From assembly GCA_028711765.1 (NCBI GenBank), contig JAQTRP010000002.1, positions 1-47,601 of the forward strand: a stretch of 47,601 bases of DNA, given 5' to 3'. This document shows, in pieces, positions 1 to 45,083 of this stretch. Source of the DNA: Candidatus Omnitrophota bacterium (GTDB lineage: Bacteria > Omnitrophota > Omnitrophia > Omnitrophales > JAQTRP01). The position numbers were made by a program, and so were the translations under genes. The first letter of the stretch is position 1. The number at the start of each line of letters is the position of its first letter. The notes below the pieces were generated by a model. It was not told where the DNA came from. It did no database searches and saw only the letters and a list, made by a program, of their open reading frames with translations.

Positions 1-356
1 GTTATGTATATGATGCACTTATTGGAGGGGTCGATATCAAGAGGCGCATTAGCAGGAAGAGTTCCATCGCATTGGGATAAGTAGCCTGCTTTCGTTTTAA
101 GAGGAAGCAGCGATTCAACGCCTGCATTTGCCAAATCCTGCATCGTTTTAGCTTCATCTTCAAACGTTGTTTTGTCTTCGTCTTTCTTCAAAAACTTGAA
201 CGCTGCTACAATACCACTATCTAATTCTATGGTCGCTGTACGGAAATACCACTTTACCTCATCCGGATTTTTCTTTTGCAACATCTCTATTAGTCCATCA
301 GCTGTATAATGTTTGCTGAATTCTAACAGTTCCAATTTGATCTCTTGATTAAGCTT
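1..356 (-). other. Module 25 (truncated by window edge): possible protein-kinase-like N-lobe
   Basis: Follows GASLG at 357-371. KLNQEIKLELLEF...DSGIVAAFKFLKKDEDKTTFEDEAKTMQDLANAG resembles a VAxK lysine strand plus a helix-C Glu. Only about 118 aa are visible. Confidence 0.25.
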
Positions 357-3300
357 CCCAAGCGATGCGCCGCCTTCCGGCTGGTAGCCATATAGACGAG
401 ATAGATACACCATATTGAATCCGGCCGCCTCAAAAGCCTTCGCCAGTCTCGGACTCTTTACTATTTCTACCCATACTCTATTTACTATCCGCCGAACTCG
501 TTCTCTTGTTAAACCAAACTGTAACCCGATTGCATTAAGAGTTTTGCCCTTGAGGCGTTCCGCAAAAATATCTACATTCCTAGCACTCACCATTTTGCGA
601 AGGATACCTTTTAACAAAGACTTCAGCTCTTCTATATCTAACTTGCCTAATGAAAGAGGCTCTTTTCGCCGTGAATCTATTCTTAACACCAAACTTGATT
701 CGTGAACCTCTCTCCGCTTCAACCTTTCATTGTCCGGGACTATAGATATTTGAAGCTGTCTTTTTCCGTTGCTACGTCTCAATAAGCTGAGTCTAATGCT
801 TGTTGAAAGATACGCATGAAATGGTTTTCCTTGTATATATTTCGCGATACATGTCCTAAGCCTATCTTCCCATTTAGACTCATCTAAATTAACCGGCGTA
901 CCGTTTACATGCACCAGGCAAGCGGCCCAATATCTAAACAATCTCTCCGCCAAACCGCGTAACACATAGTAACTGGCGCGATTGCCTTGCTGGGCATCTA
1001 CGGTCAATTTATTCTCCTCTTCGTCTGTCAACCCCTGTTTTAAGATATCATCTATAGTATCCGGCAGACGTTCGTGTCCCTCGTGCTCCCCCAATATAGA
1101 CCTTGCACTTTCCCAATCTTCATAAGTAAGATTAAGGACGGGCGGGTCTACAACCAAATCTTCTATCCCTAAATACCGTTTTAACGCTTTCAATGCGTTA
1201 GCCATGCTGTCGCAACGGAATTTTCTATTTGCCCACGCTAAAATACCTCCTAAACCCTTATTGTTAAACTTGGGCACAGGTTTACTAAAATCAAAAACAA
1301 CTAAAGCGCCCGGCTTTTCCTTCAAGGCCTCGGCAAGCAGTCCTACCATATGCAGTTTCGCTTTCCTTGTAGCCCGTTGCCATATACAGCGCACGACACC
1401 TTTTCCAAGTTTGAATAGGGGCAGTATGTTTTCTTCTGTTATATCTTGCGCTGAACGGTTTTGCCTTTTGTCCGCACCCAACAACCGTCCGGCTTGCCTC
1501 TCTGCCTGCCTGCCGGCAAGGCAGGCTTCCGGCTTCTCTTGACTATTGACTATGGACTCTGGATCATGGACTGCTTCACGGCCCAGTGACGAACCTTGGA
1601 AAGGAAGCTTGCGCTGAGCGGCAAGCTCAAAAGGATTTAAACCGTCTTTGACTAACTCCCGATTCACCCGCATCAATACCGCGGGAAGCAAGACGTGAGA
1701 GCACTCAAGCAGTTCCGCCAATTCGGTGGAACTCAGTTTTATTAATCTCTTTTCATAATTAACGCTGGGAACCGTTTTGTCGCCTAAGTTTTCTAACCGC
1801 CCCATACACGTTTTGACATAGTCCGCATTCACGGATCTTAAAAGCGCCCTGTCATAGTTTTTTCTTTTTTCGGGATCGGTTAATACTTCGCGGGCGCGTG
1901 TTATCCGGACAAACATTTCGCTACTTTCTCCGCCGCGATGGTCCGGATGATACCTCGCTGCCAGTCCTCGATACGCCTTTTTTATTTCTTGCGGGGCAGC
2001 ATCAAATGAAACTCCGAGTGTTTCATAATGACTTCTTCCGGATAAAAATTCGGGTATTCCCGGTATGGTTAGCGCCTTTTCATCCCGCATTTTTGCGAGG
2101 CGACGCAGTACAACCCAAAAACATGACTTTAGCACCATAATATCTATTCCTATCTTCCAGGCAATCTCCGTGCGGAAGGGGAGGCGCCTTCTCGCGGGAT
2201 TCTTTCTAAAAACCGCCAGAACATATTCCACCGCAACATCCACGGCTAACGCGTTAATTATTGGGGCAACCTCTTCCAATAATGGCCTAAAGTTTGAACC
2301 TTCAACGTTAAATATTTTTAATCTCTCGCGAAGTGCTAACCGGCCGATCCCGAGCAGTTTCGCAGCCCTAGACTTATTGCCGGAACACGCGGTGAGCGCC
2401 CACACGGTAAGGACTCTCCTCAGAGTACTTATTGTGATTATCTCCACGTACGGCCATTGTCTTGCAATTTCCAATACGCTGTCCTTGCCTAATCTCATCT
2501 TTATCATCCATTCATTAAGAGCCGATAGGCATATCCCCAAATGGCACGCTGCCTTACGCCTGTTAAATTTACCGTTTTCTGAAGTTTCTTTCAGGGCGTA
2601 TGCTACAAGCTTTCTTGTCCATGCCGCAATGTTGTATGCTTTGAAGTCAGGATCCCTAAAGATATCTTTTCTCTTTTTGCTCGCCGTTGGGGGTGAGCTC
2701 CTAAAAATTGGGCGATCGATATTAAATCCTTCAATGTCTTTTAAATAAAGCGTCCTCGTGCTGATTCCGAGCAGTTTCGCGGCCCTAGCCTTATCGCCGG
2801 AACATGCAGCGAGCGCCCGCCTAACAAGAACTTTTTCCAATGAACTCACCGTAATTATTGTCTGAAGCGGCCATTCTTTCGCTATTTCCTGAATATTGCC
2901 TTTAACTCTCATGCTGCGCATTAATCTATAAATAGTAGTCTTACTCATCCCTAAGCGCAACGCCATCTCTCCTCTGTTTAATTTCCCATCCTTCGAAGCT
3001 AACATAAGGGCGTATGCTACAAGCCTTCTTTTCCAAGTTTTAATTTTGTACGTATCCAGATCCGGAAATCCATCAGTATTTATCCCTAATGACGAGCCGG
3101 TAGTCCGGTTAGCCAGTAAGCTTGTTAGCGTGTTAGCCGGTTGGACAGTTATGGGCCCAACCCGCTCACTGGCGAACTCACTAACCGGCGCACCAACACG
3201 GCCCAGCGACGAGCCGTCCGCGGTGATACGCTTTTCGATTTCTTGATGCATCTTTGCCAGATCTTCGGGCAGGGTAGAATATCTACTGCTACTGCCGGAT

Positions 3301-6300
3301 GGAACTTTTTCTCCTCTAAGAGAATAGTAAACCGCTTCCGCCATTGCCTTAGTAATGCGGGAATCATACCCTTCTTCGTTGAATACGGGAGGCAGGACTA
3401 GGCCCTTTTTCAATTGCTCTTCGGAAACCATAGAGGCTAAAGCGAGGCTGGCTTGGGCAGATACTTCTTCGATATCAATACCGTCCGTTAAAAGTCCTTT
3501 TTCTAAGGCATCCGCTAAGGCGCGGAATACACCGGGAAAGGCATAACAATTATTTATGGTGGTAATTCCGGGAATGCCGAATCTGCCGCAGGCGGCCACC
3601 GATATATTATTGAATTTACCCTCTTTCTTTTGCTTCATAATCTCCCCTATATCAAACTCAGGGTCGGGATTGGCGCAGGCAAAAACAAAAGCGCCGTCCC
3701 TCATCCCCGAAAGAAGCTTTTCCTCTCTCCCCCAAAGAGCCTTCGGCTGAGAAAGCCCTATGAAACCATCCGCGCCACTAAGCGCCCCTTTGAGGTCGCC
3801 GGAGAAGTCTTTGTTATAGTCTAAAAGACCCTTTTTGACAGGGGTTAAATCCCTTCTTCCACTATGAATCACGCCTTTGGAATCAAAAACAATAATATGC
3901 TCGACCCCCAGCCTATGAAGAAGATGAGCGGATGCAACGGCTGACGCACCCGCTCCGTTAATCACAATCTTTGCCTCTTCCAACGGACGGCCGGAAATCT
4001 TCAGCGCATTGATTACCGCCGCGCATATAGTAATAGCGGTGCCGTGCTGATCGTCATGCATAGTAGGTATTTTAAGCTTTTCATTCAGGTGCCTCTCGAT
4101 CTTAAAACATACGGGGCTCGCGATATCTTCAAGCATTATGAGGACGTCCCCATACTCCTTTTTAAGCTTCTCAACCTCTTTTATTACCTTCCTCTCCACG
4201 CCGGCCAAATCTTTATTCTTCCACTCTCGCCGCGTATCAACTAACAAGATATTGGCATCTACATTGCCAAACCATTTAAGCAGCGCTTGTTTGCCTTCCA
4301 TAACCGGGCCCGCGCCCATGAACCCGATATTGCCCAAACCCAAAACAGCTGAACCATCTGTTACAATCCAGAGCTTGTGGCTTGGGTCGTTTTGAATGTG
4401 AACGAATTCCTTGAAATATTCTTCATTTTCCGCGGCCAACTTAGCTATCTCGGCTACTCCGGGGCTATAGATAGTGGCCATTATCTCTGCGGAAGATACC
4501 GGCACCACGCCAAGTTTATCCCATAAACCTCTCAAATATTTATAGGTACTTTTGGGTTGCGGGTTAACCAGCTTACCGGCTGACCGGCTAACCGGCTCAC
4601 CAGACCGCCCCAACGACGCGCCGGCAGTACCGGTTGTAAGTTGTAAGTTATAAGTTTTAAGTTGCTCATTCTGTAATGGTTTACTTACAACTAATAACTT
4701 AGAACTTATAACTGAATCTCCCTCCCCCAGCGACGAACCACCCTCTTTTTTGTCGTGAGGAGTCCTGAGCGAATCCGCCGCAGTTTTGGCGGACGAGTCG
4801 AAGGGCGACGCGCCCGTAGCCCAGTTAGCCGGTGAGCCTGTTAGCGTGTTAGCCGGTTGGACAGTTATGGGCCCAACCCGCTCACTGGCGAACTCACTAA
4901 CCGGCGCACCAACACGGCCCAGCGATGCGCCCTTCGACTGAAGCGCTTTCAGCACCTCACCCGCTTTCTCGCGGACCTTTGCGTCCGGCTCGTAATCAGC
5001 GTTTGCGGAACATTGAACCCAAGGAACAACACCCGCGTCCCTAAGCTCCGCGAGGACTTCGAGAATCGCCATACGCATGGCGGCATTCTGCTCATACACG
5101 GTATTCTGAACGATAGACGTTCCGTCCGGCCCGTAAACATTAGGCACAAGCCTCACGGCAAAACGCGGCGCGAGATCCTGGATAGCTGTGCCGCCCATAA
5201 TCGAGAAAAGCTCGCGGATCCTATCCCTATTTACAGCATCCGTTTCATACTCAGGATTCGCAATCGGCTTTCCGTCCGCTCCGCGCGTAAAGCAACAATT
5301 GGCGTCGTGTTCATACTTAATAAGCTTGCGCGCGATAAGGGCTTTACGGCGATCGTCAACAGATGCCTCCTCATTATGCTTCGCCATAGTTATGAGAGTA
5401 ACTAAAGCTGCCCTCCGGCCTACAAAATCTTCCTCGTTATAAGTGGGGTTTGAAAACAATTTTCCGTCAGGATGTTGCTTCACAACGTTTTGCTCATCGT
5501 ACGAATACTTGAAAAGCATCATATCTGCGAGAAATCTGGCTATTTCAGGCTTATACCACTTCACATTCTGCCTCATGTGGTTAATGGCACTAATCCTAGC
5601 AGACGGATTCTCAAGGTGTTTTATCAATTTCGTACGGTCATTTTGAACAGGAAGTTTGTTATCCTCCGGCTGCTCCGCCCCGCCTGCCCTGAGCGATGTC
5701 GAAGGGTTGGCAGATTTCTCGGGAGTTTTGCCTACGGGGCCCGCCCGATCGCCGAGCGAACGGCCGCCGCCGAGACGCTTTATTAAAATAGACAACGCCT
5801 GATTAAAAAAGTCCTCGATTGAATCGCGGTCGCGCAACTTGCCGGGAGTGATAAGATCCGCGCCCAAGGCCGTCAACTGAGACGCGAGCGATTCCTCGCC
5901 GTTTTCGGTTTGCGTTGAGTTAACAATCACAACCGGCTTTACGGCACAACGTTCTCTGATGAACCTTAAAACAGCCCGCCCGTCAATACGCTCACGACCT
6001 CCGCATCCTTCCTTTCCGAGATCAAGAACTACTATATGGATGCCCGGCGATTTGAATTCGGCGTAAACATCGACATTATTCGAAGCCGAGATAATATTTT
6101 CCTCAGCCACTCCCAAACGTTCCAACACTTCACGCAACGCCTCTGAATGGTTCTCGTCATCTTCGGCAATCAGAATCTTGATCGAAAATTTATTTATCAT
6201 AGCGCCCAAGCTCGAACCCTTAGTTCCATCCTCTTTGCTATCCTTTTTCTCTTCTTCGCGGCGCCTGAGCTCATCTTCAATGGCTTTCCGCGCGTCTTTC

Positions 6301-9300
6301 TTCGACTTGAAACCAAACGAAGACATAAGACTCCTTACCAATTCCTTGAGCCCCTTTCCGAATTTCGGTTTACTTGCCGTATGATCGCCTAGCTCGGAAA
6401 TGGCCTCGTCCATCCAGAATTGCCTCATTCCCTCATCCAAACCGCTACCGGGTGCGCCGGCTGATGCCGCGGCATAGCGGAACATATCGGCGGGAGGGCA
6501 CTGCCTCTTGGACAAGGTCACGATTTGGATGGTCCCTAATTTACTATCTTCCCTGCTAAGGACGGCCGGATCAATTTTTTCGGCGAGGGTTGAGCCGTCC
6601 TCGTACTTGATGCCGTACCAGCCTGAACCTACTTTTGTAATAATGACCATACTGCCGCCGTGGCTCTCGAGCGCATCGCGCATAAGCGAAATACCCGTTC
6701 CCGTGCCGCCCTCGGCAGGCGCGTCTTCAACGGAAACATGTTCGCTAACACCGACGTCGAAGAAATGATCGCGTTTGTATGAACTCATTCCGGCGCCGCT
6801 GCCCTTGAAACTAAGGACGATTTCATCCTTGGTCTCGGCGGCATCAAGCTCCACTCTGCCGCTTGTTCCGCCAAGCCGCCAGATGCAGTCCTCGAGCGCC
6901 TCCCTTGTGGCGCGCCTCAGGTAATTTCTGTTCGCCCACCTAAGGGATATTTCCTTATGGCCTTTAAGAAGAGCATTTTTCTTAATTCCAAAAATCTCAT
7001 CGATTCTCTTGCGGGCAAGCTTGTAAACTTCTTTCCTCGCCAGATTCTTTTGAATCTTAATATTTCCCCAGTCGATATTTTTTATCTCGCGCTCGCCTTT
7101 ATAACCGATCGCAATATTTGAATGGTCGATAGGCGTATACCATCTCCACAATAAAACCCTTCTCGCAAACTCCCGCGCTGCATCAAAGCTTTCGAGAACG
7201 CCGACGGCGTGGGGCTCTAGGGATTTCTCACTATGTCTCTTATGCTCTTCAAAGCGGCGATTCCGATAAGGCTTGATATCCGCCTTAATGAGTTCGTTGG
7301 CGTGGTTGATAATCTGGGCAAACTCGCGGAAGAGGAAGTACATCCTCTGCAGATAGTTCCTCTGGATTTGAGGATCGGTAACGATTCTTTTATTGATTTT
7401 CTTCTCGTCTACTTTCTTCCCGTCTTTCTCCTCGGTCAGCAGTTTGCTCATATTAAGAAGAAACGAAAAATAGCTCTGGCTGAACGCGGGTTTTGCCGTC
7501 GTGAACTTTTTCAACTCCGCGCGGCCGCGCAACACGATGTCTTGGTCTTTTACGCCTTCTTTATTTAACTCCCTAAAGGCTTTTTCGAATTCCGCCATGT
7601 CCGGCTGATAAACCCTGCGGATGCCTTTGTCTATTCCGGAGTCGACCCCATAAAGGTATTCCATAAACCGGTCATAGAGGTCGTGGTATTCCACAACAAT
7701 ATGGCCGAGATCCCGGAAAACGCTGAGTATAAACTGCGCCTCCGCCGCCCTGCGCGCAAGCGACGCCTTCTTCTGTTTGGTCTTCGCCCTCTCGAGGCGC
7801 CCTACAACCTCTATAACGGCCTTCTCGATTTTCCCGCCTTTTGCCTTGGGTTTGCGCACAATCTCTGATAATTTATCCAGCTTAGCCGCCGCGACACACC
7901 TTTCCCTCAAGGCTGTTAGTAAATTGTAACGCGCGTCAATAACGGGTTTCGAGAGCTCGGCCAGCCCGAGGGCGGTCATATTCTTATCGTATTTCCTAAG
8001 CATGAATACCCGCCGCGCGCGGGCTGATTCCGACACTGTCGATCTTATAATGCTGAAAATGGTCTGATATAAAGGCGCGCCAATCCAAGCAATGAAGACG
8101 TTGGCGGCATAATACGGAACCGAAATCTTAAAATTAAACCTTTCGGCCAGTGTTTTCTGCATTTCAGGGATGTAGTAGACTATTCTCTCCCTCTTGTCTT
8201 GGCGCTGATAATATGCCGAAAGTTCCGGATACTGCTTGCCCATTTTCAAGCCTACGGCGCTGACGCACAACGCCTTCGCCAAAAGGGCGAGCAAATAAGG
8301 AGGCGGCGTGAAGGTATAAGCCATCCAGAGGGCGGCGCTTCCTGTGAACACGGCCTTGAGCAAATAGTAAGCGACACTGTAGTAGGCCGCGTTCCAAGTC
8401 CCAAGAAGGACACTCGCTTTCTGGAGACGATTTGAGAATGAGCCGGAATAATGCTGGCCGAATCTATCGGCGATATGCATACACAGCGCGCCGGTCGCGA
8501 AGCTGACTAAAATCCCTTGCTGGCCCGGCACAAAGAGAGCCGCCGCAAACACAGACAGAATGAACGGAATGCGGAACGCGAAGAACGCAACCTCGTTGAG
8601 CCTGAGTTCGTCCGTAATGCCGGTGAGTTTGAAAATGACTTGCTTCGCGCCGAGCGACGAGCCCACCGAAGGCCGGCGGGGAGGCCTGAGCTTGTCGAAG
8701 GACGAGGAGCCGGCGAGCTTTCTCAGGAACTTTGTCATTGTCCTAGGGCTGAAATTTTTGGACGGCCTGTCGTTGTTAAGATGAACCGCGGCTGTTCCGT
8801 AATTACTCAGGATTTCTCCGTTCTTTCCGACATCATCCTTTGTGTGTACCACGTCCGAATCATACGAAATAAGATTGGGCCTTGCCTTATCGAGCAATGC
8901 TTCATCAAGTATTTTAGGTGAAATACAAACGCCCATTCTAAGCAGATAGAAAAGATCGGCCGCGCACGAAGGTGAATCATAACCGTCGAGCGGATATTGA
9001 GCGATAAACTTGTTGTAATTATTATCGTGAACCACATCCGTCCTAAGGCTGCCCGCATAGTTCATCACGGAAACCGCGGAGGCCGCTTCCTTCAACTTTC
9101 CAAGCACATCCTTACCGTATTTTTTCTCATAGGCCGCGAGTAAAGAACTAGCGCTTTCAACAACAAGTATAAGGTCCTTTCCTCTAATCTTTTTCTCCTC
9201 GAAACCGTAACGCCAGAAGCACGCCGGGTTATAACGGCGATCTCTTGCGTTCGCGCTGTAAAAATATGTGTCTAAATGGTCATAAAAAGACACCGCGAGG

Positions 9301-21300: not shown

Positions 21301-24300
21301 AAAAGAAGTAATTCGGTATCGAAAGCGGGCGATTTGTCTTTTACGAAAGGAAGGATCCCATAAAGCGCTTCCCTCTTGAATAGTTTAAATCCCCGCTGGG
21401 TGTCTTGAACGCTCCGGAGTTCCGGCAGGATAATCCGCACGCAAAAGCTGTAAATTTTACTCGATAGAATCCCCTGAAGCGACATACCCTCACGACTAGC
21501 ACCAGCCGTCCAGCGGGAACCAATCGCGACATCCGCCTTCTTACGATAAAGCGGCCTGAGCAATAGGCCGATCTCGCGGAGGTCGACTGAGGTATCGACA
21601 TCGGTATAGCCGATATAGTCGGCTTTATTCTCTAACAACGCCGCCCCTAGGCCAAAGTGCACGGCCCCGCCTTTTTTGCCGCCCAAGGCTTTCTTCTCTT
21701 CGGGGGTAACCACCTCGACTGAAAGCTGCTCAGAAAAAAGGCGTTCTCCTTTTTCCCCGTACTCTCTCAGGATTTCCCGCCAAAGTTTCTCTATGTATTT
21801 AGCCGAAGCGGCGTCCGGACTACCATCGTCAACCGCGATCAGTTTCCACTTAAAATTAGGGTTCGCTTTAGTCAATTCCTGAAGCTGGGCCACCTTAAGC
21901 CTTAACGCGTCTTCGCCCTCCGGATTATCGGCGCTCCGCGGTTTAAGCCTCGCTTCTTCGTTATACATAGGCATAACCAACGCCACCGTGACCGGCTCCT
22001 TTATGGTTTTGATGAAGCCGAGCGACCGTCGTATTTTATCCGTCTCCGCCGCGCTCCTGCCCTCACCAAGCGACGAGCCGTTAAAATCCGTCGTCCGTGA
22101 CTCGTCGTCCGTCGTCCGCATTCTGTCTTTTGTTATAAATTGATCACTGACGTCTGACGACTGACGCCTGCCCTCCGTAGCCTTGGCGAAGGAGGGACTG
22201 GCGACTGTTTTCCCGCCCAGCGATGCGCCCGTAGGGCTAAGCGAAGAGCTCCAAACAGATCTCGTTGTCAAATCGAGCGCATTGCGGTACATTACGTAGC
22301 ATTCTTCGATAGACGGGCTGTGCGTCCCGAATATATTAGAAAGGCCGTTGGAAACGGAAACCTCTATGATCGATTCAAGGTCTTTGGCTTGGGCCACCTT
22401 CCTATTCGACGGTTTGTCGGAGAAACTACCAAAATCATCCACGAACAGGACCACTATGTCGTCCTTACGTCTTACCAACTTAAAATTCCCAAGGTGCATA
22501 TCGGAGGTGTCGGGAGCCTCGCCGTAGTACCCAAGGAAATGGAATATCGCGATGATGCCCAACACCTGCCGGGCTATTGCCTCGCCGAGTTTCCGCGCAT
22601 CGCCTCCATAGCAAGCGTATTCTTTCGCGATCTTTTCCAACTGATCCGGACCTATATCTTCGAGGCGCGAACCGTCCTCGTATTCGAAGATGGCTATATT
22701 GGCGGATTCTTCCAGGTTGCTCATATCGAAGGCCGTCGTCTTTCCGTAGATTTCGAGCTCGTTATACGGCAGTGAGTAAAAAGCCACGGGGCGGACAAGC
22801 GACGCATTGGGAAAGCGCTCCAATATTTGGTTTGGTATCTCGAAATCATTGGGGCTTACTATGTGTCTCGCGTACTCATCGTGGTCTTCCTCGCCGGGAA
22901 TCTTTATTTCGAGCGCGAAACTCACGCGTTTGGTTTCGTCCATCCTGAATATTACATGTCTTCTGAATGAATTCGGAGACGGCGTTACATATATCCCGCC
23001 GCCCAGATGGAAATACGTTCCTTCTCTGATGCAATCCGCCAGAACGCCGCCGCACTCTCTGTATATCTCTCTTAACGTCGTCAGTATGCAGAGAAGTTTT
23101 CTGACATTCTCCGGGTTAAAGAGAAGGTTGTACATCGCAGGGTCGCCTGCCATGAGCCTTTCTTTAGCGCCGTCGAATGCGCGTATACCGGCCGGCTCAC
23201 AATCCGGTTTTGCTTCAAGATCGGGCATGCCTTCCGTCGCAAGAAGAGGAAGGATATCCATCCTCTTCGCCATCCTCCGCCAAACGAGAATGGCGGTGGC
23301 ATTATCTCTATCAAACAGCTCTTCTCTGAATAATTTTATTTCGCCGGGCAACAATTGGAGCTTGGGATTCCTTTCGCAAAATATGTCAAGGATGTACAGC
23401 ATAGAAGCTTTTGGCACGAGGTTTTTAGAAAATAGCAAACGCATTAAGTCCAGATCGGACTGGACAGGCTCACGTTTGACTCTTGGGTCGCTAAAATAGG
23501 AAGATACAACATCAAGCAACCTCAGAATCTGCTCTATGTCGACCTCGTCGCGTAAATGGTCGAAGAGTACTTCGTAAAGAGACGGCTTGTTACTAATGGC
23601 CTTCGCAGCAGCGAGGCAGAGATTTTTGCGAACCCGATAACTAAAAATTCCTTTCCTGTATAAAATCAAGAGATCCGCAAAACCTTTATCGGATAATTGA
23701 ATGTCCGGATTTTCATGTATGGCGTGCCATAGGTCCTGACTAACAACACTGGGAGCCTCTTCTGCTACCCCGGCGTCTCTTCTCTTTAAAAAATCAAACA
23801 TACCCCTAAGCGTCATGCTGTTAAAGTACATGCCTCCTGCTTCTTCCTCTGTCCGGCCCAGCGAGGCGCCGCTCCCGAGTTGTGCGTATCGGCTAACATA
23901 TTTGAAGAATCTTTTACGATTATCATAATGCCGAAATTCGGACCCGCCTTCTTTCGCATACCATCTTGCGAGTATTTGGGTGATGCTCTCCGTTTTAATG
24001 TCTCCCAATATCGCTTCAGGAGGCGGATTGGTCATTAATGCGGCATGGTCGCACGTAAAAAGCTTTCCATCGGCTCCGACAAACAGAAAGATTCTACCGG
24101 CTGCACGATGCCCTGTCGTTACATCAAAAGGATTCAATGTTCTCGCAAATATCCCTTCCTCTTTATCAAAGTCTTTGGCGCCGCCCTGCGCGATAAGATG
24201 ATTCACGTACACTTCGTCTGTCGAGGGATTCAAATGGTACCGTTCGAAAATATGCTTGCGCTCTTCGCCTCCATGGCCAGGTGCGGAAGCCAGCCGAACG

Positions 24301-27300
24301 TTGTACCCGATAGCCAGCCGCTTCTTCCGAGCAACATAATCCTGAACGCCACGAACAATCTTTTTTAAATCTACTCCCTTTTCCGATTCTTCCTTCTCGT
24401 GCCACTTATCTACCGAGATTACCAACGTAACATTATCGGGCAGTTTGTCCAAGAAACCATCAAGTTTGCTTTGGTCTTCGGGAAAACAATAAGCGTTGGT
24501 GTCTATGTGAACTTTTTTAACGTGCCGCGAGGCAAAGTTAATTAAGTCATAAAATTCCGGTACAGGTTCTCGTGTCTCAAAATCTCTCTTATAGTAGTAA
24601 AAGGGCTCTCCTCCCGTAAAATATATGCTGGGATAACCGTCCATCTCCTCAAGCACCCTTTTTAGAATTTCAAGTGGTATATCCGCTTCGGGTGCAGCAC
24701 GCCTAACATCCTCGATGCAACACATGGGGCAATTGAGCGGACATTTGTGCGTAATCATTATGTTGATATTTGGGTCAAAAAGCGGAGATAAGGCTTTAAT
24801 AAGGCTTGCTACATTTACCGCTTTTTCAGCCACAACCTTGGCGGCAGGCTTGCCCCTTCCAACCAATGCTTTTGCAACGGTCTCATAGGAGCAACCGTCG
24901 CTCTTACTGCATAACAAATCGATGAGCGCCTTTGTCGAACGTGGATCATCAATACCGCATAACGCCCTAGCGGCAAACAAGCATTTAACATAATCGCCGT
25001 TTTCCAAAAGGTCGATGAGCGGTTCTGCGGCGGAAGGGTCCCCGATTTCACCTAGAGCGATGGCCGCACTCACCGTTTTATTCGATGGTTCGCCTCTCAG
25101 CGCTTGAATCAGGGGCCGAACGGCAGCACGTTTAAATTCAACGATAGCATCAATAAAACAGGAATGATCGCTTGAACGACGATACTCGGGCTCCTTCAAG
25201 TTCTCTTCATAGTAATTGTCACTTTCCAGACAAGCAATAAGAGGTCCTATCGCAGAAGGATCGCGGATCTCGCCAAGAATGTTAGCCGCGTTAGCTTGCA
25301 CATTTTTCGAGTTATTGTTTAGCTCTTTGATTAGAACCGGCACAGAGGAAGGACCGATCTCCTTAAAGACATCGACTAAGTTATCAACCTTTTGAAACCG
25401 CCCGTAACTACTACACCAACCACTATGTTTAGACGTCCTATAACAATCCCACTCATAATAAGGGGCTTTCTCCAGACAACGCAACGCGTAAGGAAGCGCC
25501 CTCTCTCTGCCTATCCTCGCTAAAGACAATACGGTCCTTTCACGTGGAAATTCTCGATCCATCCGCTCTAATCCTCCATCGGCTATATACTCAAAAGCGG
25601 GCTCATAACGCAAACTTTCCAAGGCCTCAAGGACTGCTAAAACCACATTGCGATCCCCGCCGCTTTTCAACGCCTTGAAAAGCGGCCCTCCTGCCGAGAG
25701 ATCGCCGATCTTGCCTAAAGTTTCTGCGGCGCGCTCTCGCAGTAAAGGATTAAACCAGCCTCGATAACCCCTCAGGCATTTCGAAAGAAACCGAACGGCA
25801 GGCTTTTCCATTTCTACCAAAGCGCGTGAGGCAGCATCGGCAATGTGTGAATCTTCGCTCTTTAACGCCTCGACCAACTCTGAAAACGAACATTCGGACA
25901 TCTTGGAAGCCAGCTCATCAGCTAAAGCAGCTGCCGCTCCCGCGCTATTTTCCTCCCCCAGCGACGAGCCGGTAGTCCGGTTAGCCGGTAAGCCTGTGAG
26001 CGAGTCAGCCAGTGCACCGTTAGGTCCTGAGATTGCCACGGCTGCTTCTGGCAGCCTCGCAATGACACCGCTAACTATGAACTGTGAACTATGAACTATG
26101 AACTGCGGCTCCGCCGCACGGCCCAGCGACGCGCCGGTAGTCCGGTTAGCCGGTAAGCCTGTGAACGAGTCAGCCAGTGCACCGTTAGGCCCTGAGATTG
26201 CCACGGCTGCTTCTGGCAGCCTCGCAATGACACCGCTAACTATGAACTGTGAACTATGAACTATGAACTGCGGCTCCGCCGCACGGCCCAGCGATGCGCC
26301 GCTTCCGCCTACGGCGGGCTCTTCACTAAAAAGGCGGGCGAGGAGAGTGTGAGAGTCGGGAACGCATGCCTTGCAAAAATGATTGGCCAACCGTTCGAAC
26401 AAACTGCCGTAGCCTTGAACCTCGGCAAGCCTTTTTAATACCGCTGAAATATTGAGTCTAACGCTCGTAGTCTGTAAACTTTTGCATGTGTCTTCGAACC
26501 CTTTCTCGAAAGCCGACGCGATTTCTAATCTTGTCCCCTCAGTACCCCTTTCCCACGATTTCATCTTGCGCAGCCTGTCAAGATAGCGCCTCGAAAATCC
26601 GTGAATAAAATCAACCAGCCAGGATTTATAACTAAACTGGTTGGATGTATCGTAGAGCGTATCGATAATGTCGAGGCCGTTGAGATTAAAAAAGATAACC
26701 TTGCCCGTTTTCGCGTCAACAAATACCGTTTCCGGTTTGGACTCAAGAATTGAAGCATTGGGAAGGAACCAACCGCTTAGACGGGCAAGCCTTCCCAAAT
26801 CGCGCGCAAAGTTAAGCGCGGCTTCACCGGAAAGTTCGCGATCCAAGCGTTCGTCACTAAGGGCATACGCATCGAGCTTTTCGCGAACGACAAAACGGCC
26901 GCGGCGGGCAATATCGCAGACCGGAAGACCAAGCTGCTTTAATATCCGGCTGGTAAGCGTGCGCTTTCTTTCTTCGCGTCCTGTGTAAAAGCTTTGCTTT
27001 TCTATCGCTATAGGCAGCGTTTTTCCATCTTCGAAAACTAGATCATAAAAATATGAAATCGGCATCTTGTCTTCGGAGTCTACGAGCTTCTCGAAACTAT
27101 CGCCGAGATAATCTTTTATAAGCTTCGCTAATTTGTAATGTTGAAAGTAATCGCGGCTTAAGACCCAGCTTAGGCGGGAAAGGAGGCGTTTCGCTTTGCG
27201 GGAGCGGGAGTGAAATAAATTATCAACCGGCATAGCAATCTTCTTTGTAAACCAATGCCGAATGCACCTTGAGCGATAAGCCCAGCTATCGGGAAACCAC

Positions 27301-30300
27301 CGCTCGAGCCCCACGCTGCCTCTTTCATCTCCGAGGCTGCGCCCTGAGCCTGTCGAAGGGCTTGCCCCGTCGATAGATTTTCCGAAGGTTTTATCTACGG
27401 GGCTTGCCTCACCAGCGGGCTTTACATAAACCGAGTAACCAGATATGCCTTCGCTAATTTTCGTAAGTCTTGGAAACTCCCGATTGCCCAACAAAACAAA
27501 CTTAGCGCCTACCTTAAGCTCGCGGAGAAGTTTATCCTCAAGTTTTGTGGCAAAATCCTCTGCCTGTCCCTTAGGGGCAGCGAAATAGGAGAATATAATA
27601 TCGTAATCTCCGTAATCGACCATCTCAAGAAAATCTCCGTGTTGAAAATCAATCTTTTTGGTATCTACGACGCCGTGAATCATATCGTGATTTAGTTGCG
27701 CCCATTTACTTGCGTTAAAAAGCTCATCATCTAATTCCCGACCCGTTACATGACCCGCCCACAAGGAGAAAATCATAGCAGTTTGACCATTGCCATGGCC
27801 TAAATCTAACACCCGCGTATTTCCATCAATCTCAAGTTCATCTTTAATATCAAGAATGCTTCTTATGCGCGACATTTCGAATTTGCTGCCATTCACTGTT
27901 CTTTTACTAAGACTATAACCGGCCTTAGCATACGAACCTCTAAAGAATTGCCTGATGGCTTCGACTTTCCTCTCTTCTTCTGTGCCCCCTGCCGGTGTAA
28001 GCAATGAGCAATACTTTTTAACAAAATTTTCGATCATTCCGTTATCCATGCTTTCATTAAAACGAGGAATACTTTTTCGGGCCTCGATTATCACCTCTAT
28101 TCTGCCCAGCAAAGCCTTGTTACATTCTAAGGCCTTGATTAATATCTTTTGTTTCTCCTCAACGGAGGATAGTCTCTCTACGGCATCCCTTAGCTGCAGG
28201 CGCAAGAGTTCAAATTTGTCCAGCCAAGCGTCTAATCCCTTAAACCATTCTCTAAATGTTTTGCTGGTGTACTTAATATCATAAAATTGACTGCAAAGCC
28301 CCCTGAGGGCTCTTGCCAGATCACGAAGGTTTATCTTCAACGCTTCATCTTTCAGTTCCGTCCTTAATCCTTCATTAACAACCCTTTTGTCGAAAAACAC
28401 ACACCAAAATATCTTGTCCATTGCATCGCTAGCCACGTTCATTTTCTCAACAATACCGTTTACTTCACAAATATCATTCGCTAAAAGTTCTACGGCAGCT
28501 TCCGGATCAAACAAACTCGTCTCGCCGAGCGACGAGCCTGAGGGTTTGAGTTTGGCTAATTTGCCCACTGTATCGACTCCGCTAAAATCGGCAAGCCCTT
28601 TAAGCAAATCGGTGCCTTCGACTCGAAGCGGGGCACCTTCATAAATACCGGAATCTATCAACGTGCCTGCCAAAGTAACAAGATCATCAAGCACCTTTCG
28701 CTTCAAGTCGGGTGCGCTCTGCTCATTCAACGAGAGAGGAAGGGCAAGCACAAGTCCCCTTTCCTTCGGCTCTGACGAGTCGTCAAGTCTCCCACGGATG
28801 AAATCAGGATGCCTGTTCTTATATCGAGGCACATACATTGTTTTATGATCATCCCACATAAACTTTCCGGTATTTCGCCCTTCAGCCACAGCCACGCAGA
28901 ATCTATCCTCGACCGGCAGAACAACAAAATCGGCCCTATGCCATTTGCTACTCCTCGCGACGCCGTATATTTCCAAAATAAGTTCTCTGCCAGACCATGG
29001 CGTCATACTCGCACGATATCCGAAATCGCCGGACGAGCACTGCGCAGCACTTCCGCTTCCTGAAGCAAGCTTGCTTATATCAAATATGCGCCTGAGGGGC
29101 TCCACAGTCGGTGCCTTGCTTATTTCAGAAAGGGCTCTTCTCCTAATTCGCTTCTCAGCCGGTTGCTCATTTTGGGGGATTTTTTCTTTAATCACTTTAA
29201 CCGATTCAGCCGGTAAAGCGCCGGCGGCCACATCCTGCGGTTTGTCTTCTCCGGTTCTTGGCAACAATTTCTTGGGGGTAAGCGTTTTCTTCCCGCCGAT
29301 AATTTCACGCGTAACAGTGTCTGTTCTGCCGGCCTGAACCGGCTTGGAAGGGTCGGCTGTGTTCGATTTGTCTTCGCCGGTTTGAATGCCTAGTTTCTGT
29401 CCGAGTCTCGTCTCAAGATCCTCGAAAGTCCTGGAAAGATCTGAGATGCATTTCTCCTTTGCTCCTCTATCCTCAGTCATAGCCAAAGGAGCCAACCTTC
29501 TAAGAGTTGGGATAAGCTGTGCTCTTATTCCCTCTACAATAGCGAGCGCTTTTCTACGATCTTCTTCCCCTCCAGAATCACATTTACACGAGCACTCATC
29601 AGCGATACCGATAAGCGCATCCCTTAGGTGGCGATAATCCCACATCGTGTCTTCCGATTTACCCAAGCTAGATCCCATTACGCCGGCGCCGACAGAGGCA
29701 AGCCGCGAAAGCTCCGCGTTTATCACAATATCCACCGGCAGGCCGTCGCAGACATGTGCCTCGGGCGACATAGTCTCTTTCGCTACGCTAAAGTCGTTTT
29801 GGATGCGCTTGGCGTAAAGCTTATCTCCTAATTCAAAGTTATCCGCGGCGGGAGAAATGACGAGGTAGGATATATTCCCTTCTTTCAGGACGCTCTTAAC
29901 TGCTTCGGTGTGAAAACCGCCGGTGAGAAGGAATGACTGGGGATTGTCTTTTAGGAAAGCGATGAAATTCCGCGCTATGACCTTATCGCGCATTCCGGCG
30001 AAGCGATAAAAGCGAAGGGCGGATTTAAGATGACGGTGTAAGGCGGCCCCGTTGGAAATATGCACACGTCGCAACATATTGGTTTTAATATCGCCAATTT
30101 GTTTCTGCGAAAACGATTTCTTTGCATATGCTGCTTGATTTCCAACGGGGTGAAACGTGGCCTCGCGATATACCTTTAAATCCTTGCGGGTGGCTTCGCA
30201 CCTTAGGATGCGCCGTATCACCCGGAAAGATTTAAGCTCATCGATAAACTGTTTCTCGTCCTCGGTCTTCGCGAGGCGGGATTCTATTTGTGAAGCGAGC

Positions 30301-31361: not shown

Positions 31362-31470
31362 TTGTCTAAGTGGTAATACTTTATTAAAGTATTTTACATT
31401 GAAGATATAGAAATACCCTCATCCTGACTTAACACTAGGATAATATAAGGGTTACAGCTATTCAGAGTTA

Positions 31471-31499
31471 ATTATAACACACAAATTACGGGAAGGCAA
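31471..31499 (-). promoter_or_regulatory. Candidate sigma-70 promoter for the giant ORF (extended -10)
   Basis: The minus strand reads TTGCCT (31499-31494), a 17-nt spacer ending in TGT, then TATAAT (31476-31471), about 110 nt upstream of the ATG. No clear Shine-Dalgarno precedes the ATG. Sequence pattern only. Confidence 0.3.
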
Positions 31500-31607
31500 A
31501 TGGAGGTGCAGATTTAGTCCTTGTTGTAACCTATGGTGGGCGAAGAAGATATGGAATAAGCTATAAGATAAACAGCGCTAATTTCACTTACAACTTAAAG
31601 CTTATAG

Positions 31608-32180
31608 CTATATTTGCTGAATTTCCTGCTCTTTGGTTTTAACGAGCTTATCGATTTCTTCTATGAACTGGTCGGTAAACTTCTGCGATTCCTTCTGGAG
31701 TTTAAAAGCTTCATCCTCGGGAATCTGCTTATCCTTTTCGAGCTTTTTCAAATGCTCGTTGATCTCATGGCGCGAATTGCGGACAGATACCTTCCCCTCC
31801 TCCGCGAGGCGGTGGACAATCTTCTTAAGCTCGACTCGTCTCTCTTCGGTAAGGGGCGGCACCTGTATCCGGATGGATTTTCCGTCATTTGCCGGCGTGA
31901 GGCCCAGGCCCGACGCCTGAATGGCTCGCTCGATATCCTTAAGCACAGTCACATCCCAAGGCAGAATCAGTATGTTGCGCGGATCGGGCGTGCTCAGATT
32001 CGCGAGGCCCTTAAGCGGCGTGAGGGTGTCGTAGTAACTGACCTTTACGTCTTCCACAAGATGCGTTGAGGCACGGCCCGTGCGGATATTCTGGAACTCG
32101 CGCTTTACCGCGTCAAACGCTTTCTGCATTTTTGCTTTTCCGTTATTGACCATGTCGCGTACTGCTTGAGGTTCTGCCAT
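31608..32180 (-). CDS. frr: Ribosome recycling factor
   Basis: ...FQNIRTGRASTHLVEDVKVSYYD... The track ORF begins at GTG 32195. ATG 32180 is preferred because GGAGG lies 8 nt upstream. Confidence 0.95.
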   Translation of the reverse strand: MAEPQAVRDMVNNGKAKMQKAFDAVKREFQNIRTGRASTHLVEDVKVSYYDTLTPLKGLANLSTPDPRNILILPWDVTVLKDIERAIQASGLGLTPANDGKSIRIQVPPLTEERRVELKKIVHRLAEEGKVSVRNSRHEINEHLKKLEKDKQIPEDEAFKLQKESQKFTDQFIEEIDKLVKTKEQEIQQI

Positions 32181-36474: not shown

Positions 36475-36481
36475 AGAAGTT

Positions 36482-36580
36482 TTAAGCTATAAGCTTTAAG
36501 CTATAAGTAACTTCTGGAAACTTTAGAGCACAGAAGCTCTTTCGCGTATTACTTACAGCTTACAGCTTATAGCTTATAGC
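36482..36580. repeat. Long imperfect inverted repeat of ataagct / acagct words in the divergent intergenic region
   Basis: Left arm ttaagctataagctttaagctataagtaa (36482-36510). Right arm ttacttacagcttacagcttatagcttatagc (36549-36580). Inner cttctg..cagaag hairpin. Confidence 0.7.
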
Positions 36581-36683
36581 TGGAAAAGTGCGGATTTTAC
36601 CATATTCGTTGACTTATAACAAGCTATTTGGTATAATTGACCCGTTTTCCACCGTAAAATATTATAGATAAAAGGGTTACGCA

Positions 36684-38808: not shown

Positions 38809-38847
38809 CCCGAAGGCGGGGCACGAGACACGGGTCACGAATCACGG
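38796..38847. terminator. Hairpin at the convergent 3' ends of lpxB and the sensor kinase
   Basis: Arms ccgtgacttgtgacccg / cgggtcacgaatcacgg with an 18-nt loop. It overlaps both stop codons. No U-tract is visible. Confidence 0.4.
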
Positions 38848-45007: not shown

Positions 45008-45043
45008 CACTTTATCCTGTTAAATCTGTTGTTAACTTAGTTA

Positions 45044-45083
45044 GCCAGTGAGCGAGTTAATAAATACTAACTCGCTCACTGGC
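45044..45083. other. Perfect 16-bp stem / 8-nt loop hairpin between skp and lpxC-fabZ
   Basis: gccagtgagcgagtta-ataaatac-taactcgctcactggc, flanked by gttagcc / ccggctaac words. This is the same vocabulary as the spacers at 3099-3200 and 4815-4916. Confidence 0.8.

Follow-up and report, generated by a model that had tools for sequence, protein, structure and literature searches.

Introduction

Bacterial ORFs longer than 10 kb are usually explained as NRPS/PKS megasynthases or as giant adhesins and RTX proteins. Many ORFs of at least 10,000 aa are already on record from Omnitrophota, and a giant class of "multi-enzyme metabolic clusters" has been described there (West-Roberts et al. 2023, 10.1101/2023.11.21.568195; Nielsen & Lui 2026, 10.64898/2026.06.07.730766). 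At least 916 public giants of this phylum are catalogued. Whether such a protein works as one chain or is cut was raised in the 2023 study, which stated the cleavage points as unknown (10.1101/2023.11.21.568195), and the 2026 preprint treats the class as inner-membrane-anchored multi-domain enzymes and does not invoke cleavage (10.64898/2026.06.07.730766). In term searches, neither publication yielded an inter-module motif. Cutting of very large chains is known from MARTX and large clostridial toxins, whose C80 cysteine protease domains free effector modules at small-Leu↓small sites (arrow, cut), for example EGSL↓GED in TcdB and EGAL↓GED in TcdB-8864 (PMC2900308). In Rickettsia, palindromic elements (RPEs) lie inside coding sequence, in frame and stop-free, where they contribute extra peptide segments, and also occur in intergenic regions (PMC10969869).

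Here we analyzed a 47,601-bp stretch of Omnitrophota DNA (the window) that carries an ORF of at least 10,453 codons. We infer that its product belongs to the membrane-associated multi-enzyme giant proteins of this phylum. Like them, it is at least 10 kAA long, sequence-unique, and cut by a contig end; it combines many unrelated Pfam families, none dominating, with methyltransferase, HATPase_c, receiver, radical SAM, and HEAT domains common to both; and it has an N-terminal hydrophobic segment and internal transmembrane (TM) clusters, found here by a hydropathy scan. Unlike the described multi-enzyme giants, its modules are delimited by a strict junction peptide and by in-frame repeat-element spacers, a punctuation that seems not to have been described previously. 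Because giant ORFs are known to be frequent in Omnitrophota, the ORF itself is one more example, and a partial one. Its value lies in the internal punctuation, that is, in 33 precisely placed junctions that appear to be selected as peptides, and in relatives that bracket the same module with analogous but different motifs.

Results

Region 1-31361 is a real protein-coding giant gene, truncated at its 3′ end. The original prediction of a stop-free minus-strand frame of more than 31 kb was reproduced: when the reverse complement of 1-31361 was translated from ATG 31361 to position 3, the 10,453 codons contained no stop, and the remaining two minus frames of this interval contained 580 and 753. 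With the in-frame TGA at 31419-31421 as its upstream limit, the open stretch measures 10,472 codons, and since the 19 codons between this TGA and ATG 31361 include no ATG, GTG, or TTG, ATG 31361 is the sole possible start. We obtained the same chance of an open frame as had been given under a uniform null (10^-218), and 10^-252 when the actual base composition was used; the longest open stretch among 100 shuffles reached 220 codons. The frame is indeed missing from the ORF list, because the list by design leaves out ORFs that run off an end, and all that is listed in 1-31361 is seven plus-strand ORFs of at least 150 aa. The C-terminus was also correctly placed beyond the window. As the window is the complete public contig (47,601 bp), the gene is cut by the contig end and not merely by the window. 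In an attempt to extend it, no relatives of the C-terminal module were found in genome and metagenome contig collections.

Several observations back the further claim that the frame is under selection. Codon-usage likelihood, with 14 neighboring genes as the training set, favored the giant-ORF frame in 69/69 windows of 150 codons. Internal paralogues are under purifying selection, with dN of 0.40 versus dS of 1.16 for modules 16a and 23 (aa 9928-10335) and dN of 0.46 with saturated dS for modules 12 (aa 4629-4909) and 13 (aa 4910-5207), which are paralogous at 44%. In the malic-enzyme module, all residues invariant among 51 ordinary malic enzymes are retained, and the AF2 model of this module has pLDDT values of >90 over aa 8936-9381. 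Finally, frr and the first 1,691 codons of the giant ORF are also present on a Logan contig that was assembled separately, from SRR22315508; over 5.9 kb the two sequences agree, differing only at junction 3, by an in-frame indel of 24 nt and five substitutions. Exact look-ups matched only two short Logan contigs. The public contig is a short-read MAG contig, and repeat copy numbers and the module order at nt 3084-4925 are as assembled there.

The gene lies on a cellular chromosome, near frr, pyrH, tsf, rpsB, and lpx genes, and is transcribed away from frr across an AT-rich gap of 246 nt. This gap contains a promoter-like site with 10/12 consensus matches, the only extended −10 in the scan and a candidate by consensus match. 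Conserved synteny with frr was not found for genes that carry the N-terminal module.

The 33 junctions described below delimit 25 modules and 9 short spacers (Table 1). The modules are gene sized, with a median of 375 aa, and the identifiable ones are complete, unrelated enzymes or regulators. The Pfam families represented are HEAT_2, Radical_SAM/SPASM, Glycos_transf_2, HATPase_c (twice), UDPGP, Sigma70_r4 (twice), Response_reg, malic/Malic_M, HTH_8, and DnaJ. Condensation, adenylation, KS, AT, and carrier domains of an NRPS/PKS megasynthase are absent, as are the Ig, cadherin, TSP3, or RTX repeat arrays of a giant adhesin or RTX protein, so that size is the sole likeness to either. By Pfam, no archaeovorin/dockerin-type domains (dockerin, TSP3, SecA DEAD-like, C39) were found in aa 1-10453, the C-terminal part being missing.

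Table 1. Coordinates of the giant ORF, its promoter-like site, modules, and spacers, listed in the direction of translation
Feature	Position (nt)	Residues (aa)	Strand	Description
Promoter-like site	31471..31499		(-)	TTGCCT, 17-nt spacer, TG-extended TATAAT; ~110 nt upstream of ATG 31361
Giant ORF	3..31361		(-)	10,453 codons; 5′ end complete, 3′ end truncated by contig edge
Module 1	29661..31361	1-567	(-)	Hydrophobic helix (aa 2-27), ~500-aa conserved domain of no known family, disordered tail, GSSLG (junction 1)
Module 2	28524..29660	568-946	(-)	No detectable family; ends GSSLG
Module 3	27330..28523	947-1344	(-)	SAM-methyltransferase-like, weak matches only; ends GRSLG
Module 4	26286..27329	1345-1692	(-)	No family; ends GASLG
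Two tandem 55-aa spacers	25956..26285	1693-1747, 1748-1802	(-)	Hairpin, AGTTCAT heptamers; each ends G[AS]SLG
Module 5	23856..25955	1803-2502	(-)	HEAT repeats and radical SAM/SPASM; Pfam HEAT_2 1.4e-28, Radical_SAM 4e-10; AlphaRep/HEAT in PDB
Module 6	22215..23855	2503-3049	(-)	No family
Spacer	22065..22214	3050-3099	(-)	Heptamer repeats and hairpin; ends GSSLG
Module 7	21147..22064	3100-3405	(-)	Family-2 glycosyltransferase (Dpm1-like); Pfam Glycos_transf_2 1e-06; PDB 5mlz
Module 8	20436..21146	3406-3642	(-)	Histidine-kinase-type ATPase; HATPase_c 8.9e-12
Module 9	19809..20435	3643-3851	(-)	CheD-like, sub-threshold: Pfam CheD E=0.015, 15.9 bits vs cut-off 25
Spacer	19704..19808	3852-3886	(-)	AGTCARA heptamers and hairpin
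Modules 10-14	15234..19703	3887-5376	(-)	Orphans
Module 15	13119..15233	5377-6081	(-)	Weak LexA-type HTH at N-terminus
Spacer	13020..13118	6082-6114	(-)	31-nt-arm hairpin, -49.9 kcal/mol for 99 nt; inverted repeat I2
Module 16a	11259..13019	6115-6701	(-)	Sigma-70-like: Sigma70_r4, sigma70-ECF; 105-aa unit x3; ends GSSLE
Module 16b	9711..11258	6702-7217	(-)	UDP-GlcNAc pyrophosphorylase-like; PDB 1vm8, 8yp3 at 1e-15; Pfam UDPGP
Spacer	9537..9710	7218-7275	(-)	Strongest hairpin, -93 kcal/mol for 174 nt; GRSLG/GKSLG flanks; inverted repeat I4
Module 17	8649..9536	7276-7571	(-)	No family
Module 18	6204..8648	7572-8386	(-)	N-terminal TM cluster (aa ~7588-7705) and C-terminal HATPase_c
Module 19	5751..6203	8387-8537	(-)	Receiver (CheY-like); Response_reg E=2e-4, below gathering score
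Module 20	4917..5750	8538-8815	(-)	No family
Two spacers	4608..4916	8816-8879, 8880-8918	(-)	Hairpin/heptamer elements; peptide predicted disordered
Module 21	3201..4607	8919-9387	(-)	Complete malic enzyme; PDB 5cee 2.6e-56, residues 44-393 of 413
Spacer	3084..3200	9388-9426	(-)	84% identical to aa 8816-8852
Module 22	1581..3083	9427-9927	(-)	Two Fis-type HTH and DnaJ J-domain; DnaJ 9.8e-20, HTH_8 2.4e-18
Module 23	357..1580	9928-10335	(-)	Sigma-70-like, paralogous to 16a
Module 24 (start)	3..356	10336-10453	(-)	Cut by contig end

The conserved domain of module 1 has the invariant residues D98, H100, E128, R458, and GG-x-H484-T, and belongs to a family with members in Omnitrophota, Elusimicrobiota, Auribacterota, and others, at ≤28% identity and often heading long ORFs. 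No Pfam or PDB sequence match was obtained for it, and a profile search against PDB sequences was empty. The AF2 model (pLDDT 81; <50 at aa 526-567) gave a single weak Foldseek match, to EreC (prob 0.57, E=0.1). This match and a motif pattern point, as a lead only, to the N-terminal domain as a possible Tiki/TraB/erythromycin-esterase-like hydrolase. For the stretch aa 3887-5376, no homologue at E≤1e-5 and no Pfam match were found. Within it, module 10 has a C-terminal TM cluster at aa ~4155-4230, which, like the TM cluster in module 18, is based on the hydropathy scan. The DNA of module 16a contains a tandem repeat of 315 nt x 2.3, and the PDB match of module 16b begins at chain residue ~6, right behind GSSLE.

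The peptide G-x-S-L-G, more precisely G-[S/A/K/R]-S-L-G, occurs 33 times with overlaps allowed (32 non-overlapping; 0.4 expected by chance). As originally claimed, all 33 copies share one frame, that of the giant ORF, with none in the other five frames; none occurs in 5,088 aa of neighboring genes. In all 32 non-overlapping matches, positions 1 and 4 are G and L, and no substituted variant was seen; the sole likely degenerate junction is the GSSLE at the end of module 16a, and a double junction, GKSLGSSLG, lies at aa 5203-5211. No junction falls within a Pfam- or PDB-aligned interval. The junctions are predicted to lie in disordered linkers: AF2 pLDDT values drop below 50 at aa 526-567, 8811-8934, and 9384-9440, segments that adjoin confidently folded domains and contain six junctions and three spacers. 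A GXSXG nucleophile elbow or an ACP phosphopantetheine site was ruled out, the motif being in disordered linkers instead of a fold.

Judged from its codons, the junction is selected as a peptide. Ser is encoded by AGC, TCG, and TCA and Leu by TTG, TTA, CTC, CTG, and CTT, while 23/33 junctions are within one mismatch of GGC-NNN-TCG-CTG-GGN. When in-frame sites one mismatch off this consensus were picked by DNA similarity alone, 14/14 mismatches were synonymous; as ~30% would be expected to be so, P is about 5e-8. The motif also survives in the population variant at junction 3, which reads GRSLG in the window and GASLG in the Logan variant with an 8-codon deletion.

The nine short spacers between junction pairs are in-frame, stop-free copies of the heptamer-and-hairpin repeats of this genome's intergenic regions, where copies of the same type lie at 36477-36586, 38788-38855, and 45044-45083. 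Their fold energies range from -25 to -93 kcal/mol. The spacers at aa 1693-1802 form a tandem repeat of 165 nt x 2.1 at 97% and fold at -62 and -60 kcal/mol; for the copies at aa 9388-9426 and aa 8816-8852, dN and dS are nearly the same. Roughly 20 junctions lack a neighboring repeat element. A search of the spacers against Rfam gave no match, and an identity as known RNAs was dropped. They were not flagged as intrinsic terminators, and terminator-like sites are not enriched inside the ORF. Integron attC-like sites were likewise rejected, since only three TTA-Leu junctions could fit GTTRRRY.

Neither the 65 relatives of the N-terminal module nor 80 related loci (2.25 M aa, six frames) showed an excess of G-x-S-L-G, where it was present at all. 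The best 150 matches of an exhaustive search include six long proteins (>1,000 aa), and none of these contains it. In JGI metagenomes, the spacer-plus-junction DNA pattern gave 7 matches, all by chance.

The best relatives are proteins of Omnitrophota MAGs, which match the malic module at 68, 51, and 41% and the N-terminal module at ≤28%. The closest relatives of the malic module are embedded in other Omnitrophota giants, where the homologous module is bracketed by the host protein's own recurrent motif: DQRP, LAFPDA, or DGG. In P0066, D[QH]RP has 12 matches, and DQRP alone 8 versus 0.02 expected; in P0075, DGG occurs 11 times versus 0.39 expected; in P0068, the recurrent motif around the malic module is LSLFAPLLAFPDA. 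The junction repeats of P0066 are near-identical in DNA and built of tandem heptamers, and therefore the relatives' motifs could be translated repeat DNA rather than selected peptides. Seven further long ORFs that begin with the N-terminal module seen here showed no recurrent motif. We note that ordinary malic enzymes dominated the output of a word-indexed search with the malic module, and that three short ordinary malic enzymes among the best 150 matches of the exhaustive search contain one chance copy of G-x-S-L-G each.

Discussion

Taken together, these data show a real giant gene whose modules are punctuated by junctions, and lead us to favor, with modest confidence, a member of the multi-enzyme class that encodes a polyprotein. 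That the junction is an endoproteolytic processing site, cut at S-L↓G or S-L-G↓, with the gene working as a polyprotein, has in our judgment an even chance of being correct. A single chain would be translated, attached to the membrane or passed through it, and finally divided at the junctions into individual proteins; the spacer peptides would be excised because they have a junction on both sides. The modules look like complete proteins, with a conserved site in linkers predicted to be unstructured, as expected of a polyprotein. Against this, the N-terminus is signal-peptide-like, yet the enzymes behind it depend on ATP, SAM, or NAD(P) and are difficult to square with export. Searches of Pfam, NCBIfam, and PDB revealed no protease domain (C80, C39, S8, or other) in the 10,453 residues, and none was detected in the related giant P0066. 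The putative protease could be the N-terminal domain itself, or it could be encoded in the lost C-terminal part or at another place in the genome.

More tentatively, Omnitrophota giant genes in general could be cellular polyproteins whose proteins are freed at lineage-specific junctions, G-x-S-L-G here and DQRP, LAFPDA, and DGG in relatives; we consider this plausible but somewhat doubtful. The junction would then evolve in step with a protease of its own, as happens in RNA viruses, and intergenic repeats could stay in the ORF because their products are cut out of the protein. If true, it would amount to a way of expressing genes that has not been described in bacteria, and it would supply the cleavage points that the 2023 study called missing. 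G-x-S-L-G may mark the cutting points of multi-enzyme giants, and the junctions make the one-chain-or-cut question of that study directly testable.

The main alternative, possible but the less probable reading, is an uncleaved mega-scaffold, a membrane-anchored enzyme array in one piece in which G-x-S-L-G serves as a hinge or docking peptide or is modified at the invariant Ser. The empty protease searches fit such an array, as does the 2026 view of the class as inner-membrane-anchored enzymes, in which cleavage is never invoked, and junctions in disordered linkers suit a hinge too. A flexible linker, however, needs no four invariant positions under purifying selection, and a scaffold leaves unexplained both the junctions on either side of every hairpin-encoded spacer and the different, equally recurrent motifs around the same module in relatives.

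We think it improbable that the junction is a DNA-level footprint, i.e., the end or target site of repeat elements or a recombination scar with no role in the protein. The closeness of most junctions to one DNA consensus, the kinship of the spacers with intergenic repeats, the DNA-identical heptamer arrays at the P0066 junctions, and the precedent of in-frame palindromic elements in Rickettsia (PMC10969869) would all be accommodated. Yet uniformly synonymous mismatches, with Ser and Leu switching codon families, are more than a DNA site could bear and are not what neutral drift produces; many junctions adjoin no repeat element; and at junction 3 the motif is rebuilt from other codons in the population variant.

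It appears very unlikely that the frame stems from chimeric or collapsed assembly, or that it lies in decaying DNA and is open by chance. The ORF does run into a contig end, and short reads could collapse its internal repeats (165 nt x 2.1, 315 nt x 2.3, and the spacer pair at aa 8816 and 9388), but the probability of an open frame by chance is at most 1e-218, the coding signal is uniform, the enzymes are intact, the independent assembly is concordant, and the frame would not stay open across a mis-join. Hardly credible is a disguised operon with modules translated from internal starts on a long mRNA and an incidental open frame: two modules begin with A-M just past a junction (aa 4629 and 8387) and some junction DNA is purine rich (GGGGAGG), but Met within 13 residues after a junction is not enriched (5/32 versus 5.5 expected by chance), zero stops over 31 kb needs selection for read-through, and the ORF shows no internal enrichment of promoter-like or terminator-like sites.

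Read as a polyprotein, the giant ORF resembles the MARTX and large clostridial toxins in its very large chain of unrelated modules with small-Leu-small inter-module sites, and the TcdB sites resemble G-x-S-L-G-(E/R/K). It differs in that no C80 domain, RTX/GD-rich repeats, or T1SS signal was detected in the available chain, which lacks the C-terminus, in having 33 sites versus 1-6, and in that its modules are housekeeping-type enzymes and regulators, with no known toxins. The toxin activator InsP6 is eukaryotic, and the likeness is one of motif and logic only. With the polyproteins of picorna-, poty-, and nidoviruses it shares one ORF for many proteins and a short linker site that differs between lineages; unlike these, it lies on a cellular chromosome, no cis protease was found, and cleavage is a proposal drawn from sequence.

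The spacers resemble RPEs and in-frame MITE/REP insertions by type, with no kinship in sequence expected, being palindromic multi-copy elements of 100-190 nt that are in frame and also intergenic. Unlike RPEs, they sit only between modules and always have junction peptide flanks. Repeat elements thus survive in frame inside this coding sequence on a scale reminiscent of that in Rickettsia.

A giant gene cut by the contig end

The giant ORF, which starts at ATG 31361 on the minus strand, is a real giant gene. The reverse complement of positions 1-31361, translated from that ATG, contained no stop in 10,453 codons, as the original prediction had claimed for a frame of more than 31 kb, and the uniform-codon probability of ~1e-218 given there was reproduced (10^-218, or 10^-252 with the real base composition). 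The remaining two minus-strand frames contain 580 and 753 stops, and the longest open run in 100 shuffles was at most 220 codons. An in-frame TGA at 31419-31421 bounds the open stretch, and the 19 codons between it and the ATG include no ATG, GTG, or TTG, which leaves no possible start other than ATG 31361. The ORF listing for 1-31361 holds seven plus-strand ORFs of at least 150 aa and nothing else; the giant ORF was indeed missing from it, because ORFs running off an end go unlisted. Exact matches of ten neighboring proteins identified the window as the entire public contig (47,601 bp). The gene is therefore cut by the contig end, and its C-terminus lies outside the window, as had been proposed.

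The claim that the frame is under selection also held. Scored in 150-codon windows with a codon model trained on 14 flanking genes, the giant frame beat its two shifted alternatives in 69 of 69, with a lower signal in short spacers (segments with a junction at either side) and over the final ~1,000 codons. Purifying selection on the protein is likewise indicated by two internal paralogue pairs, aa 4629-4909 versus 4910-5207 (dN 0.46, dS saturated) and aa 6305-6700 versus 9947-10335 (dN 0.40, dS 1.16).

About 110 nt upstream of the ATG, at 31499-31471, lies TTGCCT-17-TG-TATAAT, the best promoter-like match of the region, and terminator-like sites are not enriched inside the giant ORF. From its flanking genes (frr, pyrH, tsf, rpsB, an MsbA-like ABC transporter, lpxB, lpxA, an lpxC-fabZ fusion, skp, and bamA), the contig is chromosomal and belongs to an outer-membrane bacterium. 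The fusion is a single 441-aa ORF (43685-45010) within an lpxB/lpxI-like/lpxA/skp/bamA cluster that also holds a hybrid histidine kinase (38842-41655) and a single-domain response regulator (41680-42033).

Assembly and a population variant

A separately assembled Logan contig of 5,938 bp (L083, run SRR22315508) carries frr followed by a 1,691-residue gene call running off its end, and is identical to the window over the remaining 5.9 kb except at the third junction. There (window 27330-27362; SRR22315508_994148), a 24-nt in-frame deletion and five substitutions change the peptide from '...DGASPSTGSGRSLGDERG...' to '...DGASLGAERG...', so that GRSLG in the window corresponds to GASLG in L083; both haplotypes keep G-x-S-L-G with differing codons. 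The two internal tandem repeats (165 nt x 2.1 and 315 nt x 2.3) and the spacer pair at aa 8816/9388 remain assembly risks, and the copy number of the 315-nt unit could be mis-assembled. The paralogous sigma-70-like module at 357-1580 has a single copy of the ~105-aa unit.

Features of the giant ORF and of the long proteins that embed a malic module
Feature	Position	Description
Tandem repeat, 165 nt x 2.1	25957-26301	
Tandem repeat, 315 nt x 2.3	12223-12935	84% matches; three ~105-aa units ('RATKKAKLRMVNLLAKA...') at the start of a sigma-70-like module
Double junction GKSLGSSLG	15729-15755	Two overlapping copies with one Gly in common
P0066, 4,428 aa	3429 and 3921, around module 3436-3901	68% identity; D[QH]RP, n = 12; DQRP alone 8 versus 0.02 expected
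P0067, 4,780 aa		
P0068, 2,777 aa	About 1010 and 1540, around module 1050-1499	'LSLFAPLLAFPDA'
P0069, 1,725 aa		
P0075, 5,496 aa	4652 and 5136, around module 4662-5119	DGG, n = 11 versus 0.39 expected

Junctions separate gene-sized modules

G-x-S-L-G occurs 33 times in the giant ORF with overlaps allowed (~0.4 expected), confirming the predicted 33 sites in this frame, and is absent from the other five frames and from 5,088 aa of neighboring proteins. Position 2 is S, A, K, or R, the preceding residue is mostly S/T, and the following one mostly R/E/K; GSSLE (aa 6697-6701) is the only likely degenerate junction found. Together, these sites delimit 25 modules of at least 100 aa (median 375 aa) and nine spacers of 33-64 aa. 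Recognized modules comprise HEAT plus radical SAM/SPASM, a family-2 glycosyltransferase, two HATPase_c, a UDP-GlcNAc pyrophosphorylase-like module, two sigma-70-like modules, a receiver domain, a malic enzyme, and two Fis-HTH plus DnaJ; a methyltransferase-like and a CheD-like module gave weak matches only. About half of the modules had no match, and aa 3887-5376 had no homologue at E<=1e-5 in an index of 5.8 billion proteins. Three stretches of the chain are hydrophobic: aa 2-27, ~4155-4230, and ~7588-7705.

The modules are complete, and the junctions lie in predicted disordered linkers. No junction falls inside a Pfam- or PDB-aligned interval. Alignment of the malic module (aa 8919-9387) with a stand-alone enzyme of 413 aa spans residues 44-393 of the latter (E=2.6e-56), and every column without variation among 51 ordinary malic enzymes is conserved in the module. 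AlphaFold2 modeling of aa 8800-9440 gave pLDDT above 90 for aa 8936-9381, versus below 50 for aa 8811-8934 and 9384-9440, where five junctions and three spacers lie. The pyrophosphorylase match starts at chain residue ~6, directly after GSSLE. The N-terminal module is modeled (pLDDT 81) as folded up to about residue 525 and as disordered over residues 526-567, which lead to the first junction.

Relatives of the malic module carry their own brackets

An exhaustive HMMER search with aa 8387-9426 placed the closest malic relatives inside other long proteins (see table), three of the five (MDD5495714.1, MBN2097143.1, and MCX7927538.1) being Candidatus Omnitrophota MAG proteins. The embedded copies have N- and C-terminal extensions in common that stand-alone enzymes lack. 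G-x-S-L-G is absent from all five and from a sixth long match (P0078, 1,472 aa), and in P0066, P0068, and P0075 the module is bracketed by a recurrent motif of the protein's own. P0066 is MDD5495714.1 (L082:44-13330, GCA_028716065.1), with its N-terminus cut by a contig edge and its true C-terminus present.

In P0066, the junctions fall between domain groups, and the motif is an array of AGACCAW heptamers, five in tandem encoding the junction 'ADHRPKTIDQRPSSSG', whose copies are all nearly identical in DNA sequence. Such a heptamer repeat allows a DNA-level origin of junction-like motifs. In the giant ORF, the junction is selected as a peptide. Its DNA consensus is GGC-NNN-TCG-CTG-GGS, with Ser encoded by AGC, TCG, or TCA and Leu by TTG, TTA, CTC, CTG, or CTT. 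When sites were picked by DNA similarity alone, against circularity, nine in-frame sites were exact and 14 had one mismatch, synonymous in all 14 (about 10 of 33 possible single changes are synonymous; P about 5e-8). With up to two mismatches, the peptide was kept at 27 sites and lost at one, which is within the background rate. The haplotype difference at junction 3 likewise speaks for a selected peptide.

The nine spacers are strongly self-complementary (-93 kcal/mol for 174 nt at 9537-9710; -50 kcal/mol for 99 nt at 13020-13118), and many contain tandem heptamers, such as AGTTCAT x4 and AGTCARA x3; dN was about equal to dS between the two copies compared. Since the same heptamer-and-hairpin architecture fills intergenic DNA (36477-36586, 38788-38855, and 45044-45083), the spacers are ordinary intergenic or REP-like elements of this genome, open and in frame. 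Palindromic elements in frame have a precedent in the Rickettsia RPEs (PMC10969869). Rfam held no family matching the spacers or the intergenic repeats. Another such element lies downstream of frr (31540-31615), and intergenic inverted repeats are made of tandem heptamers, e.g., TAAGCTA x3.6 facing CTTACAG x4.3.

A possible polyprotein

We infer, with confidence about evenly divided, that the junctions would be endoproteolytic sites and the giant product a polyprotein. This reading draws on sequence and predicted structure. Junctions flanking every spacer make sense if spacer peptides must leave both neighbors. Co-evolution of protease and site gives viral polyproteins lineage-specific sites, and such sites around a conserved module, as in the malic relatives, favor cleavage. 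So does the documented 'small-Leu|small' specificity of C80 protease domains, which release effector modules in MARTX and clostridial toxins and whose mapped sites, including EGSL|GED and EGAL|GED (PMC2900308), resemble G-x-S-L-G. Against cleavage counts that no protease was detected in the 10,453 residues of the giant ORF and no protease domain in P0066; the heptamer repeats of the P0066 junction, with the DNA-level origin they allow, count against it as well. If the junctions were hinges, four invariant residues would not be needed, which again favors cleavage sites. Separate initiation of modules is unlikely, since Met within 13 residues after a junction is not enriched (5 of 32 versus 5.5 expected). 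Domain content of the available part excludes NRPS/PKS, adhesin/RTX, and dockerin-type architectures.

With K3, R4, and K9 ahead of a hydrophobic helix, the N-terminus resembles a signal peptide or an anchor; despite this, most modules need cytoplasmic cofactors.

The giant ORF probably joins the Omnitrophota giant genes already described, with sizes that reached 85,804 aa at first and 147,155 aa in later work (bioRxiv 10.1101/2023.11.21.568195; bioRxiv 10.64898/2026.06.07.730766). [quoted passage not shown] The 2023 preprint suspects C39 or S8 cleavage, with cleavage points stated to be unknown. A term search of the 2026 preprint found none of motif, linker, junction, cleav-, or polyprotein, and literature searches returned no paper linking Omnitrophota with polyproteins. 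From these searches of the two preprints and the literature, the junction architecture appears undescribed, and this internal punctuation, rather than the ORF as such, is the part worth pursuing.

The N-terminal module as a possible head

The N-terminal family combines a TM helix with a ~500-aa domain in which D98, H100, E128, R458, and G481-G482-x-H484-T485 are invariant. The domain had no Pfam match and no PDB sequence match; with Foldseek, the only non-coiled-coil match was erythromycin esterase EreC (E=0.1, prob 0.57). Its hosts are Omnitrophota (best, 28% or less), Elusimicrobiota/Endomicrobia, Auribacterota, Firestonebacteria, and Goldiibacteriota, where it stands alone (~550 aa), is fused to one or few enzymes (700-1,650 aa), or, in seven loci, heads ORFs that exceed the 10-kb flank (above 3,800 aa). 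The module may be a general 'head' of multi-module giant proteins across phyla. Neither G-x-S-L-G nor any other over-represented 4-mer was found in its relatives. The seven loci (L041, L057, L071, L073, L062, L034, and L050) come from Omnitrophota and Elusimicrobiota MAGs, and the Pfam families in their long ORFs are few and differ (M23 peptidase; M48 peptidase plus ABC1 kinase).

Among the relatives of the N-terminal module (P0001-P0065) and P0066, P0067, and P0069, small-residue C-termini (...KKAA, ...GKSA, ...LEAA, ...LSKA, ...IRNA) are frequent, and another subgroup ends in ...SLGSxKKVRDNI. These endings may be a shared C-terminal signal, either a degron or a processing tag.
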